NCBI GenBank assembly: GCA_035479795.1
Contig: DATIII010000003.1
Location: forward strand, 1 to 55,149
Origin: Candidatus Saccharimonadales bacterium
GTDB taxonomy: Bacteria; Patescibacteriota; Saccharimonadia; UBA4664; SCTI01
Length of the DNA stretch: 55,149 bases
Direction of reading: 5' to 3'
The notes below the pieces were generated by a model. The model made no database searches. It had not been told where the DNA came from and saw only the letters and a list, made by a program, of their open reading frames with translations. The position numbers and the translations under genes were made by a program. Positions 6,905 through 54,996 of the stretch are shown here, in pieces (position 1 is the stretch's first letter; each line of letters begins with the position of its first letter).

Positions 6905-7057
6905 GCTACGCAATCCTTAATGTCTATATTATACGCTACATCATCTAATAGCCGCGGTGGCAATAGCCTTAATCTCTCCTGTGTGTTGCTTGACACCGTC
7001 CTGCTGTGGTGCAAAGATAAGCATAAGTATTAAAGGTGGCGAGAGGCTCAAAAAATT

Positions 7058-9289
7058 ATGGAGAAGGAAACTCCTGAAACCCCCATCCAGAACCCCACCC
7101 CTGACAGCAACAATCAGAAAAATAAAATTAAATTTATTAAAAAACCAGCCGATTTTTCTATTAGGCATGCAGGTTTATTTGCTTTGTTTTTTGGCATCGC
7201 AGGATGTTACCTGCTTTACAGGGGCCTTGCGGCAACTCCTGCTACCTTGCCCTCAAATAACATGCAGGCGGCACAAGACTTTGTGCCCGATCAACTGCTC
7301 GTGCGCTTCCGCGCTGGCGCACCAAAAGACGTACAGGATAAGCTCTTGGCCCGCTATGGTCTGAAAGTAAAAAGCGAAATACCTCAGATTGAAACCAAAG
7401 TTGTCAGCGTCAATCCCAAAGCACTCGATGCCGTAATTAACGCGCTTTCGCACAACCCGGCAGTAGCATTCGCCGAAAAAGATCGAGTAGCTAGCCCCGA
7501 GACAGTTGTGCCCAACGACCCCGACTATACAGGAGGACTTACTCCGTACGACAATCAGTGGCCCTTTAAGATAACCGGCACGAACAATGCCTGGGATAAA
7601 ACGACGGGCGTTCCATCGACAGTGGTTGCCGTTCTGGACACGGGTATTGACCTCAAGCAGCCTGACCTTGGCACCATGGTCTCGCCATGGAGCGTACCAA
7701 GAAATAACACTGACGTGAGCTATGTACACCCCCATGGTATATACACATCAGGGGTCGTTAACGCTCACACGAATAATGCTGTAGGTGTCGCTAGCACCTG
7801 CTGGAACTGTTCGGTAGAGCCCATCCAAATTAGCACAGCCAGCAATGGTGATGCATCGTACAGCGCCATGGCCAGTGGCTTCATCTACGCTGCAGATCAC
7901 GGCGCCAAGATCATAAACATCAGTTATGGGGGAGCCGGGACATCAAACACGCTCTACAGCGCTGAAAATTATGCTTTTAATAAAGATGTGATGATATTTG
8001 CGGCAGCCGGTAACGGCGGTTGCAACTGCCCCGGCAGTCCGGCAGCAGATCCTGGAGTGATTGGCGTTGCAGCAGTGTCAAATGCCGATTATCAAGGTTA
8101 TTCCTCCTACGGCTCGTGGGTGCCCATTGGCGCGCCGACAGGCGTTGCGACCACCTGGGCCACGGGAAGCACCGTAGATGGCGGTCAACCATACGGACCG
8201 GTCGGCGGCACCTCTATCTCATCACCATTTGCCGCTGGCGTTGCCGGGCTGCTGAGATCCGCCCAACCGCAGGCAACTACTAGTCAAATAAAACAAACGA
8301 TCTTCAATACCGCCGACCAAATTGGCACTGATGCCAACGGACGATTCACGCAGTACGGGCGTATCAATGCCTACAAAGCCATGACGACATTAGTCGGTGA
8401 CTTTACGCTGTCTCCTCCAGACACAACTCCTCCAACCGCTAAGTTCACCGCGCCACTCGCCAACGCTACATTGACCGGGCAGCAGGTCATTACCGTTGAT
8501 GCTACAGATAACGCTGCTGTCTCCAGGGTTGATATCTACTGGGACGGCTACTATAACAGTATTGGTTTTATGACCTCTACCAACACTGCGCCTTACACGT
8601 TTTATTTCGACACCACGAAACTAACCAACGGGTCCCATAGGCTTTGTACCAAGGCTACAGACACGAGCTTGAACGGTGGCGGGGCGTGCGTAACGGTGAA
8701 CGTAAAGAACGACACCGTGCTCGATACGACACCGCCAACCGCCACTCTCACTGCTCCAGCCAACGGCGCTACCGTGTCAAATAGCGTTGCAGTAAACGCG
8801 ACTGCTAGCGACAATGTGGGTATCACCTCGACCGAACTCTACATCGATGGCTTATTGAGAAGTAGTGCTCAGGGTGCTACTCTCGCTTTCACCTGGGACT
8901 CAACCAAAGAAACCAATGGTGCACATAGTCTCCTCATAAAAGCCTACGATGCGGCGGGGAATACAGGCACTTCTACTACGTCGACGGTTACCGTCTCGAA
9001 TACTGTGCCGACAAGCGACACGGCTGCCCCAACGGTAACAATTACGCAGCCAGCCAACGGGTCAGCGGTGGCGGGAAGCGTCACGATTGCAGGAACAGCC
9101 GCAGACAATATTGGGGTCACCAAAATGCAAGTCTACGTAGATAGCTCGCTGCTCGGTAGCAGTACGACTAACTCAGTACAGCTCAAATGGAATACTCGTA
9201 AAGTCCGTGCCGGCAGTCATACCATTCTCATCAAGGCCTACGATGCGGCGGGAAACGCCGGTGTCGCCCAAATAAGCGTCGTCAAGTAG
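7058..9289 (+). CDS. Secreted/anchored S8 (subtilisin/thermitase-like) serine protease with three C-terminal Ig-like repeats
   Basis: N-terminal TM, prodomain, triad motifs VLDTG / HPHG / GTSISSP, AAAGN oxyanion motif; three DT..PT..(F/L/I)T.P.NG..V repeats. Confidence 0.9.
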   Translation: MEKETPETPIQNPTPDSNNQKNKIKFIKKPADFSIRHAGLFALFFGIAGCYLLYRGLAATPATLPSNNMQAAQDFVPDQLLVRFRAGAPKDVQDKLLARYGLKVKSEIPQIETKVVSVNPKALDAVINALSHNPAVAFAEKDRVASPETVVPNDPDYTGGLTPYDNQWPFKITGTNNAWDKTTGVPSTVVAVLDTGIDLKQPDLGTMVSPWSVPRNNTDVSYVHPHGIYTSGVVNAHTNNAVGVASTCWNCSVEPIQISTASNGDASYSAMASGFIYAADHGAKIINISYGGAGTSNTLYSAENYAFNKDVMIFAAAGNGGCNCPGSPAADPGVIGVAAVSNADYQGYSSYGSWVPIGAPTGVATTWATGSTVDGGQPYGPVGGTSISSPFAAGVAGLLRSAQPQATTSQIKQTIFNTADQIGTDANGRFTQYGRINAYKAMTTLVGDFTLSPPDTTPPTAKFTAPLANATLTGQQVITVDATDNAAVSRVDIYWDGYYNSIGFMTSTNTAPYTFYFDTTKLTNGSHRLCTKATDTSLNGGGACVTVNVKNDTVLDTTPPTATLTAPANGATVSNSVAVNATASDNVGITSTELYIDGLLRSSAQGATLAFTWDSTKETNGAHSLLIKAYDAAGNTGTSTTSTVTVSNTVPTSDTAAPTVTITQPANGSAVAGSVTIAGTAADNIGVTKMQVYVDSSLLGSSTTNSVQLKWNTRKVRAGSHTILIKAYDAAGNAGVAQISVVK

Positions 9290-13856: not shown

Positions 13857-14015
13857 GTAAGCCTCTTCAGTTACGTATTAGATACGATCGACCTGAGATT
13901 TTGGCTTTTTATTTTTGAGCTCCACCTGGTGTAAAGCTTATGCTTATTTTAGTCGTAAGCACTATAAATATCAAGCAAGTAGGAGCGTTTTTGCGCTCAC
14001 CTCTAACCCGTGAGT

Positions 14016-17462: not shown

Positions 17463-18239
17463 TTATTTGGCTAGCTTGGCGGCTGATTCAATAATTGCCG
17501 GGAATTCTTCGGGCTTTAAGCTAGCCCCACCCACCAGTAAGCCATCACAATGTTCAAGCTCAAGGTAGGCTTCACAGTCGTCTTTATTAACGCTACCACC
17601 GTAGAGCAGTTTTACCTGGCTGCTGGCGCCTTCCCCAAACAACTCTTCAACGATGTGCCGAATCTGAGACAGCATTTCCTTGACGTCCCCGGGTTTGGCA
17701 AAGGTGCCGTGGCCATCACCGGTGCTAATCGCCCAAACTGGTTCATAACAAATAATAACGTCTGCCAAATCATCGTCTGTAATCTGGCTCAAACAGCCAT
17801 GGAGCTGATCATTAATCACCCTTTTGGAATGGCCTTCTTGCCGGTCATCCAGCTTCTCACCAATGCACAAAACCGGCTTTAGCCCGTTACGAATCGCCGC
17901 CGCCACTTTTTGACTAATCAACTTATCGGTTTCGCCTTCATCCCGCCGCCGCTCTGAGTGTCCAATAATCACGTACTCGCACAAATCTTTGAGCATCGGG
18001 CCCGACACCTCACCCGTAAAGGCACCTTCGTCTTGAGGGTGTAAATTCTGGGCACCGACGCGGAAAACGTCTTTTTCGGCCTTTTTGGCCACGGCTGGGA
18101 GGCTTACAAACGGCGGACACAGCACGGTCGTAACATGAGTCTGCGGCTTAACCTTCTCCTGTAGCTTGCCGACCAGCCTTTCCGCCTGCTCCGGCGCCTG
18201 GTGCATTTTCCAGTTGCCGACAATGGTGAAATGCTTCAT
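17463..18239 (-). CDS. tpiA: Triosephosphate isomerase
   Basis: GNWKM, GAFTGEVS, IGHSERR, YEPVWAI, YGGSV, LVGGASL. Confidence 0.98.
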   Translation of the reverse strand: MKHFTIVGNWKMHQAPEQAERLVGKLQEKVKPQTHVTTVLCPPFVSLPAVAKKAEKDVFRVGAQNLHPQDEGAFTGEVSGPMLKDLCEYVIIGHSERRRDEGETDKLISQKVAAAIRNGLKPVLCIGEKLDDRQEGHSKRVINDQLHGCLSQITDDDLADVIICYEPVWAISTGDGHGTFAKPGDVKEMLSQIRHIVEELFGEGASSQVKLLYGGSVNKDDCEAYLELEHCDGLLVGGASLKPEEFPAIIESAAKLAK

Positions 18240-18270
18240 GGCTATATCATATCACGGTTATGCTTACGGC

Positions 18271-20854: not shown

Positions 20855-21038
20855 TAATTTTCGCCCTACTCCTCCTTATATTCTACCCGAGCATAAGCGC
20901 AATGAGAAGGAAGACATGATTTTGTTGCTTTCTAATAGCCCATGAAAAACAGGGGTTCAGGAGCGATGGATTGCCAAGACTCATCAGAAGGCGTGGTGAC
21001 GTATGTGTATAATGGTCCACATTAAAGGATACTTAATA

Positions 21039-25114: not shown

Positions 25115-25211
25115 GGGCTAATCTTAAAACATAAGCGGTTTCACCACAAGCTACCTTCCTGTCGCCCTGCCACCCACCTGTCAGCTCGAGCTTGTCAGAC
25201 AAAGACTCGGA

Positions 25212-25260
25212 GTCCTTAATTCTAGATCCTGTATCCTCAATCCTGTATCCTGGACTCTGA
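25212..25260 (+). repeat. Degenerate heptamer array (ATYCTRN-like) x7
   Basis: gtcctta attctag atcctgt atcctca atcctgt atcctgg actctga. Confidence 0.75.
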
Positions 25261-29145: not shown

Positions 29146-29167
29146 GATCTAAGTATAAGAACTTTAG

Positions 29168-30263: not shown

Positions 30264-30295
30264 AAAATTCTATAAGCATAAGCACTATATGTCAA
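30264..30295 (-). promoter_or_regulatory. Sigma70-type promoter of the 7TM-kinase operon with the GCTTATGCTTA motif in its spacer
   Basis: Minus strand TTGACA-tatagtgcttatgctta(17)-TAGAAT. Confidence 0.75.
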
Positions 30296-32136: not shown

Positions 32137-32193
32137 TTAATTCAGCCCACCATAAAAGATGCATATTAGTTATGCTTATGTTTAAATAAACCT

Positions 32194-32676
32194 ATGAAAA
32201 TATCGATAACCTCCGGATCTGGAACCGGCCCCACCGAACTCGCCGCCTTTGATGACGCTCTAATGAAAGCTGGCACAGCGAATTTTAACCTGATTGTGTT
32301 GAGCTCGATGATTCCGCCAGGATCCGAAGTGGTGGTTTCCAAAGACCCTGTGGTGCCACCGGGCGACTGGGGCGACAAACTTTATGTTGTCATGGCCGAA
32401 CAGCGCACCAGCCAACACCACCAAGAAGCCTGGGCTGGGATTGGCTGGGTACAAAACGCCCAGACAGGCAAGGGTATGTTTGTGGAACACCACGGCCACA
32501 GCGAGGAACATGTGACAGATGATATTAAAGCCACCCTAAAGTCCCTGATGGCCGGCCGCCCCGATGAAGAATTTGGCGAAATCCACATGCAACTATGTAA
32601 CGCTAAGTGCATTGGTGAGCCGGTTTGCGCCTTAGTGGTTGCCGCCTTTGAATCAAGCGGCTGGAGTTCCAGGTAG
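32194..32676 (+). CDS. pdaD: Pyruvoyl-dependent arginine decarboxylase (PvlArgDC)
   Basis: G.GPTELAAFDDAL..AGTANFNLIVLSSMIPP with the Ser-Ser self-cleavage site; GMFVEHHG; CALVVAAF. Confidence 0.88.
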   Translation: MKISITSGSGTGPTELAAFDDALMKAGTANFNLIVLSSMIPPGSEVVVSKDPVVPPGDWGDKLYVVMAEQRTSQHHQEAWAGIGWVQNAQTGKGMFVEHHGHSEEHVTDDIKATLKSLMAGRPDEEFGEIHMQLCNAKCIGEPVCALVVAAFESSGWSSR

Positions 32677-35225: not shown

Positions 35226-35633
35226 TTGGTGGAGTTTCTTGAAAAGAAGCTGAAGGAAATGCGCAAGCGTCTGGCGGTCCTCACGCCCGCAGTAGACGAG
35301 TCCAAGAGATTGGAGCTCGCAATTGCTGAGCTTGAGGAGATACTCAAGGCCTCAAACAGCTCTACCCGAGCGAAGCAGCCGACTCGCAAAACCAGCAAGG
35401 CAAAACGGCAAGCCCCCAGCGATTCGGGCCGTCCTCGCGGTCGGCCGAAGGGGTCGGGCACAAGGGGCAGGCAGGCACTGCGCCTGGTTCAGAAGCATCC
35501 CGGGATAACCATCCCTGAGCTGGCCAAGAAGATGAAGATCAAGCAGAACTACCTGTACCGGGTGCTCCCCGGTCTCGCGACTGACGGCTTGGTTCGCAAG
35601 GAAGGCACGGGCTGGCACGCCACCGGGTCCTAG
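35226..35633 (+). CDS. Basic DNA-binding protein: coiled coil + AT-hook-like GRPRGRP + winged helix
   Basis: Heptad N-terminus, SGRPRGRPKG, HPGITIPELAKKMKIKQNYLYRVL...GLVRKEG.GW. Confidence 0.8.
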   Translation: MVEFLEKKLKEMRKRLAVLTPAVDESKRLELAIAELEEILKASNSSTRAKQPTRKTSKAKRQAPSDSGRPRGRPKGSGTRGRQALRLVQKHPGITIPELAKKMKIKQNYLYRVLPGLATDGLVRKEGTGWHATGS

Positions 35634-37916: not shown

Positions 37917-37957
37917 AGGGTTTGACTCAGGCGATCAAGCATTAGCATAATACATAT

Positions 37958-39220
37958 ATGGTAGCGCCGTTTTTAAATCGCGATAATCCGGAGCAAATCC
38001 GTAAACGATTGCTGCTGCATGTCCGCGTGCGCTGGGCAGTTTTAACCGCCCTTATCGGTATTGGTACTGGCTACCAGCTGTCCGGTGGTGATATTGAAAT
38101 CAATCGCGGCACGCCGCTAGATATAATCATCCTGATCGTATCCGTTAACATCATAATCTGGGCAGCCGTTCGATACATCCATTCAGCATCGATTCTGCGA
38201 ATTATGACCCTGCTCCAGATTACCTTTGATCTAGCCGTATTTAGCGTAGCCACCTATATAACTGACGGGCCGGCCAGCCCAGCCGTCATCCTCTATTGCA
38301 TCCCGATTGTCATCTCCAGTGCACTGCTTGACGCCGCAGCGGTTTACTTTACCGCTATCACCAGCACCGCCTTTTACGCCCTGGTGTTGTGGCTGACCCA
38401 GATTGCCAGCGGTCGAAGCGACTGGCCCTATACCTACACTTCACAGATCATTTTCTTTGGCCTGGTTTTTGTGATTATGGCCTATGTGGCCGAGTTTCTT
38501 GGTAATCTTCGGCGAAATGAAGAGGGAGAGCGGGTACAGCTCGAAATGGTTTCACTGGCCACTCACCAGCTGCGAACGCCGGCTACGGCTGTCAAAGGCT
38601 TCCTATCCCTACTCCAGGATGGCGATATGGGAAAGCTCAACGCCGATCAACGCGATTTTATCCACCGAGCCTACGAGGAGAATGAAATGGAGTTACGACT
38701 CATCGGCAATATGCTGGATGTAGCCCACCTAGATCTTCAGCAGCTTAATTTCCATCCAGAGCAAGTCGACCTCCGCGCCATGATCGTGAGCCTGGCCGAA
38801 GAGCACAAACTGACGTCCACCAAGCGGAAGCAGACCCTGATTTTAAATATTCCGGAAAGTCCGGTGATATACCGATGTGATGAGCAGCTTCTTCGCATGG
38901 CCATGGACAATCTAGTGAGTAATGCTGTGAAATACGGTACGCCTACCGGAAACGTTAAAATTGGCCTCCGTGAGCTAACGCATAAAATCGTCATTACGAT
39001 TGAAGACAATGGGATTGGCATCGCGCGGGGCGACCAGCGCAAGCTGTTCAAACGCTTTTCGAGAGTGGGTAGCGATTCTAGCTCTCAAGTTGAAGGAGCT
39101 GGGTTGGGTTTGTATCTGGTAAAGAAGATCATGTCGATCCACGATAGTAAAATTGATGTGGTCTCATACCCTGGTGAGGGGTCGATATTTACGATAGAAT
39201 TGCCTAAAAGGAAACCCTAA
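37958..39220 (+). CDS. Membrane-bound sensor histidine kinase
   Basis: About five N-terminal TM; ATHQLRTP, NLVSNAVKY, DNGIGI, GAGLGLY. Confidence 0.92.
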   Translation: MVAPFLNRDNPEQIRKRLLLHVRVRWAVLTALIGIGTGYQLSGGDIEINRGTPLDIIILIVSVNIIIWAAVRYIHSASILRIMTLLQITFDLAVFSVATYITDGPASPAVILYCIPIVISSALLDAAAVYFTAITSTAFYALVLWLTQIASGRSDWPYTYTSQIIFFGLVFVIMAYVAEFLGNLRRNEEGERVQLEMVSLATHQLRTPATAVKGFLSLLQDGDMGKLNADQRDFIHRAYEENEMELRLIGNMLDVAHLDLQQLNFHPEQVDLRAMIVSLAEEHKLTSTKRKQTLILNIPESPVIYRCDEQLLRMAMDNLVSNAVKYGTPTGNVKIGLRELTHKIVITIEDNGIGIARGDQRKLFKRFSRVGSDSSSQVEGAGLGLYLVKKIMSIHDSKIDVVSYPGEGSIFTIELPKRKP

Positions 39221-39629: not shown

Positions 39630-41237
39630 TCAGTAGCTGGGTGGGCGGCCCTCAAGGTGAACGACCACTCCGTGCCATGGCGCCAGCTTTAATTCACCTA
39701 GCAGCTGCGCCCCCTCTTCGCCCCGAATGGTGCTCAATTGGACCTGACCGGCTACGCCATCGAGGGTTATTTTAAGATTAGAAAAGTTAATGAACACGGC
39801 AGTTTTCGATCCACGCAGATAGGCCCAGACGCGACCTGGACTAGGGAGTGATTGATAGGCCCCGGTTTGCAAGTCGGCAGTCTGGTTGCGGTAGGCAATC
39901 ACATCGCGAGTAAACCGCAGGGTGGAATCACTGCCGGCCGCCTGAGCCTCAACATTGCGATGGGCCGCCCAGCCAATGGGTAGCCAGGGCTTGGTATCTG
40001 GACTGGTAAAACCAGCTCCTGGGCCGGATTGCCATGGCATTGGTGTGCGAGCCTTATCGCGGCCGGTGTAGAGCGGCCATAACCGTTTACCGACTGAGTC
40101 TTGCAGCCGCCAGGGCATTACCAAAGTATCTTCCATGCCGATCTCGTCACCATAGTACAGAACCGGCGTACCCCGCAAAGTCAGCAGCATAAGTAGGCCG
40201 CAGCGAATTTTGCGTTCATCGGCTCGCGCCCAACGGCTGGGAAAGCGGGGCTGGTCGTGATTCGAACCGGTCCATACCGGCCAATCAGGCGACTTAATAA
40301 CGGCTTCGGTCTCCTCAACTAGCCGACGCAAATCGCGAGCCCGAAACTTGGATTGCAGAAAGGCGAAGTTAAACGCCAGCTCCAGTTCGTTATGGGTGCC
40401 GTAGAACGCCGCCAACTGATGCATGTCGTAGACCATGGTGGTTTCACCAAGCAGTAGTCGGCCAGGCCCGTTTTTATCGACAATTTGCCGCCAATGTCGC
40501 AAAATTCGATGAAGCTCAGGGCGCGAGGTGGTATAAATCGGCTCCTGACCCAATAGTTTCACCTCGTAGCCTTCGTCGTTGTTAGCCTCCGGATTATCAC
40601 GAAACAGCTGGTCTTTTATTAGCATGTTAAAGACATCAATCCGAAATCCACAGACGCCCTTGCCCAACCAGAATTTAAAAATGCGATCGAACTCGGCCTT
40701 GACCATGGGGTTGCGCCAGTTTAGATCCGCCTGTTCGGGTAGGAAATTGTGTAAAAAGTACTGATGAGTCGGGCGGTGATAGCTCCAAGCACTACCCCCA
40801 AACATCGACCGCCAGTTGGATGGAGGGCCGCCACCAGGTTTGGGGTCAGCCCAAATGTAATAGTCGCGGTATTCACTATCGCGGCCAATCAGCGCACTTT
40901 GAAACCAGGGATGATGGATGCTGGTATGGTTGGGCACCATGTCGATCAGAACTTTGATACCACGCTTAGCGGTTTCGGCGATTAATTGATCAAAGTCGGC
41001 CATACTGCCCAAGTGTGGATCAATGCTGTAATAATCAACCACATCGTAGCCCCAGTCGGCGTTGGCCGAAACCGTAATGGGCGACAACCAAATCCCGGCC
41101 ACACCTAAGTCTTTAAGATAATCCAGTTTGGAGATTACGCCCTGAAGATCGCCGATGCCATCACCGTTAGAGTCGCAAAATGACCTCACATAGATTTGAT
41201 AAATAATTCCGGTTTGCCACCACTGCGTATTACTCAC
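39630..41237 (-). CDS. GH13 alpha-glucosidase/oligo-1,6-glucosidase family enzyme
   Basis: YQIYVRSFCDSNGDGIGDL, DMVPNHTS, QADLNWRNP, GFRIDV, NHDQPR, YYGDEIGM, RDKARTPM. Confidence 0.93.
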   Translation of the reverse strand: MSNTQWWQTGIIYQIYVRSFCDSNGDGIGDLQGVISKLDYLKDLGVAGIWLSPITVSANADWGYDVVDYYSIDPHLGSMADFDQLIAETAKRGIKVLIDMVPNHTSIHHPWFQSALIGRDSEYRDYYIWADPKPGGGPPSNWRSMFGGSAWSYHRPTHQYFLHNFLPEQADLNWRNPMVKAEFDRIFKFWLGKGVCGFRIDVFNMLIKDQLFRDNPEANNDEGYEVKLLGQEPIYTTSRPELHRILRHWRQIVDKNGPGRLLLGETTMVYDMHQLAAFYGTHNELELAFNFAFLQSKFRARDLRRLVEETEAVIKSPDWPVWTGSNHDQPRFPSRWARADERKIRCGLLMLLTLRGTPVLYYGDEIGMEDTLVMPWRLQDSVGKRLWPLYTGRDKARTPMPWQSGPGAGFTSPDTKPWLPIGWAAHRNVEAQAAGSDSTLRFTRDVIAYRNQTADLQTGAYQSLPSPGRVWAYLRGSKTAVFINFSNLKITLDGVAGQVQLSTIRGEEGAQLLGELKLAPWHGVVVHLEGRPPSY

Positions 41238-42777: not shown

Positions 42778-42891
42778 GTCTTAAGTGGCTTTACCATAAC
42801 CATTATGACAGATTAGAAATGCAATTGCGACCGAGGAGGTTTGCCAGTCTTACTAAAATCCGGCACAATTTAAGCATAAGAGGATTTAGTG

Positions 42892-44280: not shown

Positions 44281-44330
44281 ACCTACATCATAACAAAAAC
44301 GGCCTCTCGACCGTTTAAGCATAAGTACTA

Positions 44331-44408
44331 TGGGGCGAGATATGGGGCTTGAACCCACGACCTCCGGTACCACAAACCGGCGCTCTAACCAACTGAGCTA
44401 ATCTCGCC
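44331..44408 (-). tRNA. tRNA-His (GTG) with encoded G-1
   Basis: G-GCGAGAT/ATCTCGC-C-CCA, CCGGT-ttGTGgt-ACCGG arm. Confidence 0.96.
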
Positions 44409-51235: not shown

Positions 51236-51383
51236 AGAGGGCCCCTTTACAGTGAACCCTCATCACGTTTAAAAATTGCTTTCTAATTTTTAGAGACAAA
51301 CCCCGCCGGGTCAAGGCTTTTGTTTGATAACCGCCTGAATCCATAATAGCGAACAAAAACCGAAAGTCAAATAGGAGACTCCA

Positions 51384-51442
51384 GCCATCCTGAACTCGTT
51401 TCAGGATCTCACTCTGTCATCATCGAGCGCAGCGAAGAATCT
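51384..51442 (+). repeat. Tandem pair of GTCAT-type REP-like palindromes
   Basis: GCCATCCTGAACTCGTTTCAGGATCT followed by CTGTCATCATCGAGCGCAGCGAAGAATCT. Confidence 0.65.
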
Positions 51443-51472
51443 TTATGAGCTCAAATACCGGGAGGATTTTGA

Positions 51473-51518
51473 AACCTGAATTCTGAATCCTGAATCCTAA
51501 ATTCTAGATTCTAAATTC
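51473..51518 (+). repeat. Degenerate heptamer array (ATYCTRR) x6.5
   Basis: aacctga attctga atcctga atcctaa attctag attctaa attc. Confidence 0.75.
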
Positions 51519-51524
51519 ATGAAA

Positions 51525-51539
51525 AGCTTATGCTATAAT
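51525..51539 (+). promoter_or_regulatory. Extended -10 promoter of pilB overlapping the CTTATGCT motif
   Basis: AGCTTA-TG-C-TATAAT about 30 nt upstream of the start. Confidence 0.7.
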
Positions 51540-54892: not shown

Positions 54893-54922
54893 TTGACAGT
54901 TTTAAGCATAAGCACGTACAAT
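54893..54922 (+). promoter_or_regulatory. Sigma70-type promoter of the pilin gene with TAAGCATAAGC in the spacer
   Basis: TTGACA-18 nt-TACAAT; AGGAGGTGA SD downstream. Confidence 0.7.
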
Positions 54923-54996
54923 TACCTCAACTAAAGCATTCATGCTTTGTTGTCACATTTTTTAAATTATAAAAATATTAGGAGGTGAGCACTCAC

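Follow-up and report, generated by a model that had tools for sequence, protein, structure and literature searches.

Dispersed asymmetric operators of single global repressors are known from phages, namely the C1 operators of phage P1 and the gp71 operators, or 'stoperators', of mycobacteriophage L5. Fur boxes consist of GATAAT hexamer repeats that overlap the −10 and −35 elements and that resolve into overlapping inverted repeats (7-1-7). The Gram-positive '−16 region', TRTGn, is an extended −10 element reportedly described by Voskuil and Chambliss in 1998, and AACGAT of lambda PR′ is a sigma70-dependent promoter-proximal pause element. Recognisable regulators are very few in Saccharibacteria, which are ultra-small epibionts, and, to our knowledge, almost nothing is known of how the genes of these bacteria are controlled.

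The word analysed here recurs in a 55,149 nt stretch of DNA (the window) from a Candidatus Saccharimonadales bacterium; the window is contig C3 of a genome of 646 kb with 52% G+C. The unit of the word is an asymmetric tandem hexamer, (AAGCAT)(AAGCRT)WWT, with the 10-mer core AAGCATAAGC. Like the P1 C1 and L5 gp71 sites, it is a short asymmetric word present in tens of copies, located in or beside core promoters and strictly conserved among relatives. Those sites, however, belong to phages with a known repressor, and the stoperators are orientation dependent, whereas the present word is chromosomal, extends through a whole bacterial order and occupies promoter spacers in both orientations. As in Fur boxes, tandem 6-bp units resembling −10 hexamers lie on the core promoters of many unrelated genes, but palindromic variants of the word are not enriched and it has no inverted partner. 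Where CTTATGC directly precedes TAnnnT, its TATG-n falls exactly in the place of TRTGn, although most copies lie elsewhere in the spacer, are reversed, follow the −10 or lie upstream of the −35. Copies placed directly behind the −10 may be likened to the lambda PR′ pause element, in that they place a −10-like AAGCAT or AAGCRT on the non-template strand at about −6 to +6 in a specific orientation; this class, however, makes up only about 18% of the well-placed sites. The reading that we favour, with belief and doubt in about equal measure, is that (AAGCAT)(AAGCRT) is a Saccharimonadales cis-regulatory site for a conserved trans-acting factor that sits on the core promoter and probably occludes it.

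The 8-mer AGCATAAG/CTTATGCT occurs nine times in the window (at 7020, 13937, 20890, 30275, 40186, 42873, 44318, 51527 and 54905) where 1.98 copies are expected; in 100 dinucleotide-preserving shuffles a count of nine was never reached. Eight of the nine are non-coding, and these are exactly the eight intergenic positions, from 7020 to 54905, that had been listed in an earlier note on this DNA. The near variants listed there at 18256, 25127, 32174 and 37937 hold up at one mismatch or less to AAGCATAAGC; the one at 29150 (AAGTATAAGA) is weak, with two mismatches. The ninth exact copy (AGCATAAG, 40186–40193, plus strand) lies inside a 535-aa coding frame and was left out of the system because coding copies genome-wide are at chance expectation. 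Extending the 8-mer gave the 10-mer core AAGCATAAGC, for which the window has 16 matches at one mismatch or less (4.8 expected) and the genome has 10 exact intergenic copies and 1 coding copy.

Genes were called by a crude longest-ORF heuristic that misses small genes and that divides the genome into 63 kb of intergenic and 583 kb of coding DNA. On this division, 31 intergenic copies of the 8-mer were observed against 2.2–3.2 expected from order-2 and order-3 Markov models, while the 14 coding copies match the 12–16 expected from the same models, and the 8-mer ranks first for enrichment among the intergenic 8-mers of the genome. The earlier note had held that its claim would fall if intergenic DNA showed no enrichment over composition-matched expectation; when this comparison was run, the enrichment was about 10-fold. 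The density is about 50 copies per 646 kb, or 1 per 13 kb, and about 13% of upstream regions (roughly one promoter in seven) carry the AAGCATAAGC word. Other top-ranked intergenic words form tandem heptamer arrays of a GGATTCA/GGATACA family (window about 51440–51520 and 25215–25250, and many other gaps). Some apparent sites are false. The last codons of rpmJ (L36), for ...PKHKQRQG-stop, spell AAGCATAAGCAGAGGCAAGG (G000 C8 39747–39771; also loci L132 and L160), which ORF callers with a length cut-off would score as intergenic, and the mraZ copy is a coincidence of a Shine–Dalgarno sequence with a GTG start codon.

These false sites at the rpmJ end and at mraZ are what can be said for the word having no function, whether as an artefact of base composition, a dispersed repeat or mobile promoter, a box bound by DnaA or a signal for DNA uptake. 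We find this barely credible. None of the 100 shuffles reached the observed count, and Markov models predict about ten times fewer copies; the flanks of the copies are unrelated, contrary to a dispersed repeat. DNA uptake sequences occur about once per kb, also within genes, whereas the word occurs once per 13 kb and is no more frequent in genes than expected by chance. Both a DnaA box and DnaA as the reader of the word were rejected, given that domain IV of DnaA is canonical (GGRDHTT) and that neither a cluster nor single copies of the word are found near dnaA (C1, about 91 kb).

The structure of the word was defined from 70 exact-core sites of the genome and its relatives. These share a moderate 3′ extension, R-T-W-W-T, and carry no information upstream of the core; the extension gives (AAGCAT)(AAGCRT), so the 'period-6' repeat of the earlier note was correctly seen. 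Beyond this 3′ RTWWT the flanks differ from copy to copy without relation, so that each copy is a site in its own right rather than a member of a dispersed repeat. Each hexamer (TATGCT on one strand, AAGCAT on the other) carries A at position 2 and T at position 6, the A2/T6 signature that marks −10 elements. No enrichment was seen for the palindromic relatives GCATATGC and GCTTAAGC, which have one intergenic copy each against 21 for GCATAAGC, a paired-site search with half-words showed no favoured spacing, and neither a second copy nor a degenerate inverted arm was found at any favoured spacing. The unit is thus solitary, and a palindrome or paired half-sites were rejected for lack of a second arm and of enriched palindromic variants. 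Bacterial repressors do not usually bind solitary asymmetric units that lack dyad symmetry, which counts against an operator. A free EM motif search collapsed to AT-richness and was uninformative. The same hexamer also appears in a perfect palindrome, AAAGCAT-TC-ATGCTTT, at 54934–54947 in the approximately 80-nt 5′ leader of the pilin gene.

The genes that the copies in the window accompany had been named correctly, Pfam confirming the S8 protease, the G5 protein, pyruvate kinase, TIM, PvlArgDC and PilB/T2SSE. Several copies follow a −10 element. At the S8-protease promoter (TTGACA 6990–6995, 17 nt, AAAGAT 7013–7018), AAGCATAAGT (7019–7028, plus) is flush after the −10; the gene starts at 7058, and its gap is divergent with tatD. 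At the near-consensus promoter of the G5/DUF348 cell-wall protein (TTGATA 13974–13969, 17 nt, TAAAAT 13951–13946), AAGCATAAGC (13936–13945, minus) is again flush after the −10, and an independent consensus scan found the same promoter, abutting the copy. AAGCATAAGA (42872–42881, plus) lies 3 nt after the −10 of TTGCCA-17-CACAAT at a 54-aa membrane protein ORF (ATG 42892), and its 3′ end runs into the Shine–Dalgarno sequence AAGAGG of that ORF.

Other copies lie within spacers. The pyk spacer (TTCTCA 20908–20903, 17 nt, TAGAAT 20885–20880) holds the copy at 20889–20898 (plus), which reads GCTTATGCTC on the minus strand. AAGCATAAGC (30274–30283, plus) lies in the spacer of the minus-strand promoter of a 7TM/adaptor/GAF-kinase operon (TTGACA 30295–30290, 17 nt, TAGAAT 30272–30267), and is also 34 nt upstream of a plus-strand LPG_synthase_C gene. 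A further AAGCATAAGC (54904–54913, plus) lies in the 18-nt spacer of the pilin promoter (TTGACA 54893–54898, TACAAT 54917–54922). For the last two, the contexts TTGACA-17-TAGAAT and TTGACA-18-TACAAT had been quoted accurately. Also of the spacer class is AAGCATAACC (18256–18265, minus), 4 nt upstream of the tpiA −10, TATGAT 18251–18246; this −10 sits 6 nt before the ATG at 18239, in a leaderless-type internal promoter at the pgk/tpiA junction. At pdaD, TTATGCTTATGTTT (32170–32183, plus) comprises two overlapping reverse units that run in phase into the −10, TAAATA 32183–32188, which is 5 nt before the ATG at 32194 and again of the leaderless type. AAGCATTAGC (37937–37946, plus) overlaps the −10 of TTGACT-18-CATAAT, the promoter of a PilS-like histidine kinase, where the −10 is 6 nt before the ATG at 37958 (leaderless). 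The pilB promoter has GCTTATGC-TATAAT (51526–51539, plus), in the canonical register of the TRTGn extended −10. AAACATAAGC (25127–25136, plus) lies in a divergent gap between a 184-aa gene (minus) and a DUF2127 membrane protein gene (plus), and AAGCATAAGT (44317–44326, plus) lies 4 nt past the 3′ end of tRNA-His (44331–44407, minus), before a terminator-like hairpin.

Three side observations concern these regions. Copies adjacent to a tRNA were seen in four cases (window 44317, L110, L141 and L156), 3–5 nt past the 3′ end and in either orientation, with a terminator-like hairpin after the word in two of the four (window 44317 and L141). Many promoters genome-wide have a −10 only 5–7 nt before the start codon, without a Shine–Dalgarno sequence (in the window, 18239–18251, 32183–32196 and 37945–37960), and leaderless mRNAs seem to be common in the lineage. 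A second conserved spacer word, TTCGGTTTTTGTTCG, fills the −35/−10 spacer of three promoters of the genome, including that at window 51350–51364 (minus), and is seen again beside GCTTATGCTT in another family (L151, genome G014); a further factor may bind there.

The placement of the word was then related to promoters, taken as matches to the −35/−10 consensus rather than as mapped start sites. Convergent gaps make up 16% of intergenic bases, yet hold only 1 of 50 sites in the genome itself and 1 of 95 when relatives are included. A strong TTGACA-16/18-TAnnnT pair lies within −40 to +25 at 47% of 153 sites, compared with 20% of random intergenic positions. In the 72 sites with a strong promoter, with offsets counted from the first base of the −10 hexamer, 42 copies are in the spacer, 13 are at +5 to +9, where they adjoin the −10 and span the point at which transcription is expected to start, and 9 are just upstream of the −35. 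The word almost never covers the −35 or −10 hexamer itself, and the profile of random control positions is flat. The lack of such a positional bias was the other outcome that the earlier note had named as refuting; the bias to the −35/−10 is sharp. The position classes are not an artefact of divergent promoters, because the same classes are seen in unidirectional gaps alone.

Orientation depends on the class. In the spacer, copies take both orientations and nearly every offset from −8 to −19; the reverse orientation (GCTTATGCTT towards the gene) is spread over offsets −8 to −16, and the forward orientation peaks at −12 (AAGCATAAGC-NN-TATAAT) and at −18 (TTGACA followed directly by AAGCATAAGC). 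After the −10, at +6 to +8, 12 copies are forward and 1 is reverse. Of 37 forward offsets, 18 are divisible by 6, with +6, −12 and −18 among them. Since the word lies within the footprint of RNA polymerase (spacer, start region or −35 edge), the proposed factor most likely acts on initiation, and the use of both orientations at many spacer offsets fits an occluding protein better than a positional contact of polymerase. The 12:1 orientation after the −10 and the offsets in multiples of 6 are, on the other hand, not predicted by simple occlusion. Upstream regions that carry the word also have promoters nearer to consensus (mean score 8.55 vs 7.99, p=0.001), as would be anticipated if these promoters have to be restrained.

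Orthologous promoters provided a further comparison. The receiver-only (REC) response regulator (C2 28113–28637; orthologues L193–L221), a protein with a Pro/Ala-rich tail, is found in 30 of 31 genomes with 58–87% identity. Its promoter retains the 8-mer AAGCATAA/TTATGCTT in 17 of 29 orthologues, against an estimated background of about 0.07 copies in a region that long, derived from 36 intergenic copies in 63 kb. Three arrangements were seen. In family f1 and several others (10 of 29), the word provides the promoter's own −10, TTGCnn-14-TGT-TATGCT; in f4, f3 and f9, a forward copy, AAGCATAAGT, is flush after the −35, TTGCnn; and in f6, two bases separate a reverse copy from the TATGAT that follows it. 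That the word is kept while its position turns over favours a site under conserved regulation over a purely positional polymerase contact. At the PucR/CdaR-like regulator, a GCTTAnGCTTGCWG block at the −35 is invariant in 24 of 24 orthologues (L161–L184). About 7 of 18 orthologous pilB promoters keep the word, as CTTATGs-TAAAAT in two close relatives and some others. Footprinting across families showed no conservation of the pyk site, and conservation of the site is for this reason gene dependent, a point against an operator. The earlier note had proposed either an operator for a global regulator or a lineage-specific promoter element. This was the right pair of alternatives, and the evidence leans to an operator, since the word persists at orthologous promoters even as its arrangement changes; a minority of the 7–8-mer copies are nevertheless ordinary promoter parts, either a TRTGn extended −10 (pilB) or TATGCT serving as a −10.

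Two observations made alongside this comparison are recorded here. The PucR/CdaR-like regulator belongs to an unusually well conserved tandem pair (G000 C4 31052–33425) with 56–78% identity across the order, present in 26 of 31 genomes. Near pilB, a deeply conserved promoter, TTGCCA-18-TATACT followed by GGGGG, reads GCTTATACTT, a one-mismatch variant of the word that has the −10 inside it (L014, L019, L021, L025, L026, L036–L040, L043, L046, L052 and L056).

In the main rival reading, RNA polymerase with sigmaA could itself be the reader, because the hexamers have the A2/T6 signature and TATGCT serves as a −10. The word would then be an array of −10-like hexamers plus TRTG providing auxiliary docking sites, and it could tune promoter strength or the choice of start, or cause sigma-dependent promoter-proximal pausing after the −10. 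The genome has a single sigma70-family sigma, SigA (C1 42869–43988), and its region 3.0 (...RIPVHMVETINK..., ...IPVHMVETINK...) retains the TG-reading H and E, which we take to be the equivalents of H455 and E458 of E. coli sigma70. The general promoters of the genome have T-A-T-G upstream of the −10, with G in 59% at −14. Polymerase as the reader also accords with the exact TRTGn register of GCTTATGC-TAnnnT at pilB and in several relatives, with the conserved promoter TGT-TATGCT, preceded by TTGCnn 17 nt upstream, in about 10 REC orthologues, and with the forward copies, which are flush or in 6-nt phase with the promoter hexamers (18/37) and outnumber reverse copies 12:1 after the −10. Yet we regard it as rather doubtful. 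The spacer copies are found in either orientation and at almost all offsets between −8 and −19. The canonical TG register (reverse, offset −8) is seen in only about 3 of the 72 strong-promoter sites, and an extended −10 was rejected as the whole explanation because this is so small a minority. Orthologous promoters shift the word among −10, spacer and −35-flanking positions, and the word is limited to one order or class, yet the DNA-contact residues of sigma look canonical.

The copies downstream of the −10 also bear on a signal at the RNA level, in which forward copies would form the 5′ end of short-leader mRNAs (5′-AAGC...) and act in translation initiation, stability or processing. Forward copies at +6 to +8 would set the start at the TA step within the word, an ATG often follows the word by 0–9 nt or the word runs into a Shine–Dalgarno sequence, and the 12:1 orientation bias after the −10 would be accounted for. 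Most sites, however, are upstream of the −10, where they would not be transcribed from that promoter, and half of those are reversed. The 3′ end of the 16S rRNA is a canonical anti-Shine–Dalgarno sequence without complementarity to the word, and an alternative Shine–Dalgarno sequence pairing with 16S rRNA was rejected on that account. We consider a signal of this kind improbable.

The exact 10-mer was found in all 31 sampled Saccharimonadales genomes, with 412 copies against 43 for a reversed control word (about 10-fold). Other orders of the class show a modest enrichment, and in about 115 other Patescibacteria the 10-mer is not enriched. At one mismatch or less, fetched Saccharibacteria loci (584 kb, G+C 34 to 55%) gave 107 matches against 32 for the control, and fetched outgroup loci gave 32 against 46. 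An enrichment that is specific to intergenic DNA and independent of orientation would also suit an epigenetic mark, that is, the target of an orphan DNA methyltransferase retained in promoters in the manner of CcrM and GANTC, though nothing more specific points to one. Coding copies are at expectation rather than depleted, and we know of no methyltransferase specificity that resembles a contiguous asymmetric tandem-hexamer target of 10–12 bp. A methylation site is, in our judgement, very improbable.

The target genes are diverse, and include those for PilM, PilB, pilins, M23 and S8 peptidases, G5 and PG-binding proteins, Dus, RecJ, a XerC/D-like recombinase and kinases, as well as GtrA-like and Hsp20-like proteins that were recognised by eye. 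Membrane or secreted products with an N-terminal membrane anchor are mildly in excess overall (46% vs 30%, p=0.005), an excess that is not significant for the genome's own targets alone. The specific coupling of pili, cell wall, glycolysis and signalling suggested by the earlier note was too narrow, as about 13% of upstream regions, belonging to very diverse genes, carry the word.

Candidates for the reader were sought among proteins that might regulate their own promoters, with Pfam applied to 40 proteins of the target list and the window and a further 20 target sequences inspected by eye. Classical regulators are very few in the genome: SigA as the one sigma70-family sigma, one sigma4/HARE-HTH protein and one XRE hit. 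Among the 40 proteins, Pfam picked out the PucR-like protein and, weakly, a MarR-like one (winged-helix, 35226–35633), and no other; among the 20, MraZ was the sole further DNA-binding candidate, and its copy of the word is coincidental. The PucR/CdaR-like regulator (C4 32307–33425), which has two upstream copies, was rejected as the reader, being absent from 5 of the 31 genomes that keep the word; genomes without the PucR-like pair (family f6, G018 and G022) are as word-enriched as the rest. The winged-helix/AT-hook protein at 35226–35633 was rejected because it occurs in only 2 of 31 genomes. These searches yielded no DNA-binding protein whose phyletic distribution matches that of the word, which counts against an operator, and in the searchable literature we found no paper with the word or with Saccharibacteria promoter motifs.

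In the regulatory reading that we favour, a conserved sequence-specific DNA-binding factor, presumably other than RNA polymerase, would read the word. It would occupy the core promoter and modulate initiation, probably as a repressor, so that some 50–60 promoters per genome would come under common control. As would be expected of an operator, the word is enriched in promoter-bearing gaps, lies within the polymerase footprint and is retained at orthologues with a shifted position. A bolder version, which we put forward tentatively and think somewhat unlikely, is that of an order-wide regulon in which an unrecognised, possibly non-HTH protein binds (AAGCAT)2 and controls pili, envelope enzymes, receiver-only proteins and the PucR-like regulator, as a master switch of the epibiotic lifestyle. 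The word marks the promoters of pilin, pilB, pilM, cell-wall enzymes, sensor kinases and the highly conserved receiver-only regulator, and the list of sites is a candidate regulon for these organisms. If RNA polymerase is instead the reader, the word would represent a lineage-specific promoter grammar, useful for annotation and for expression tools.
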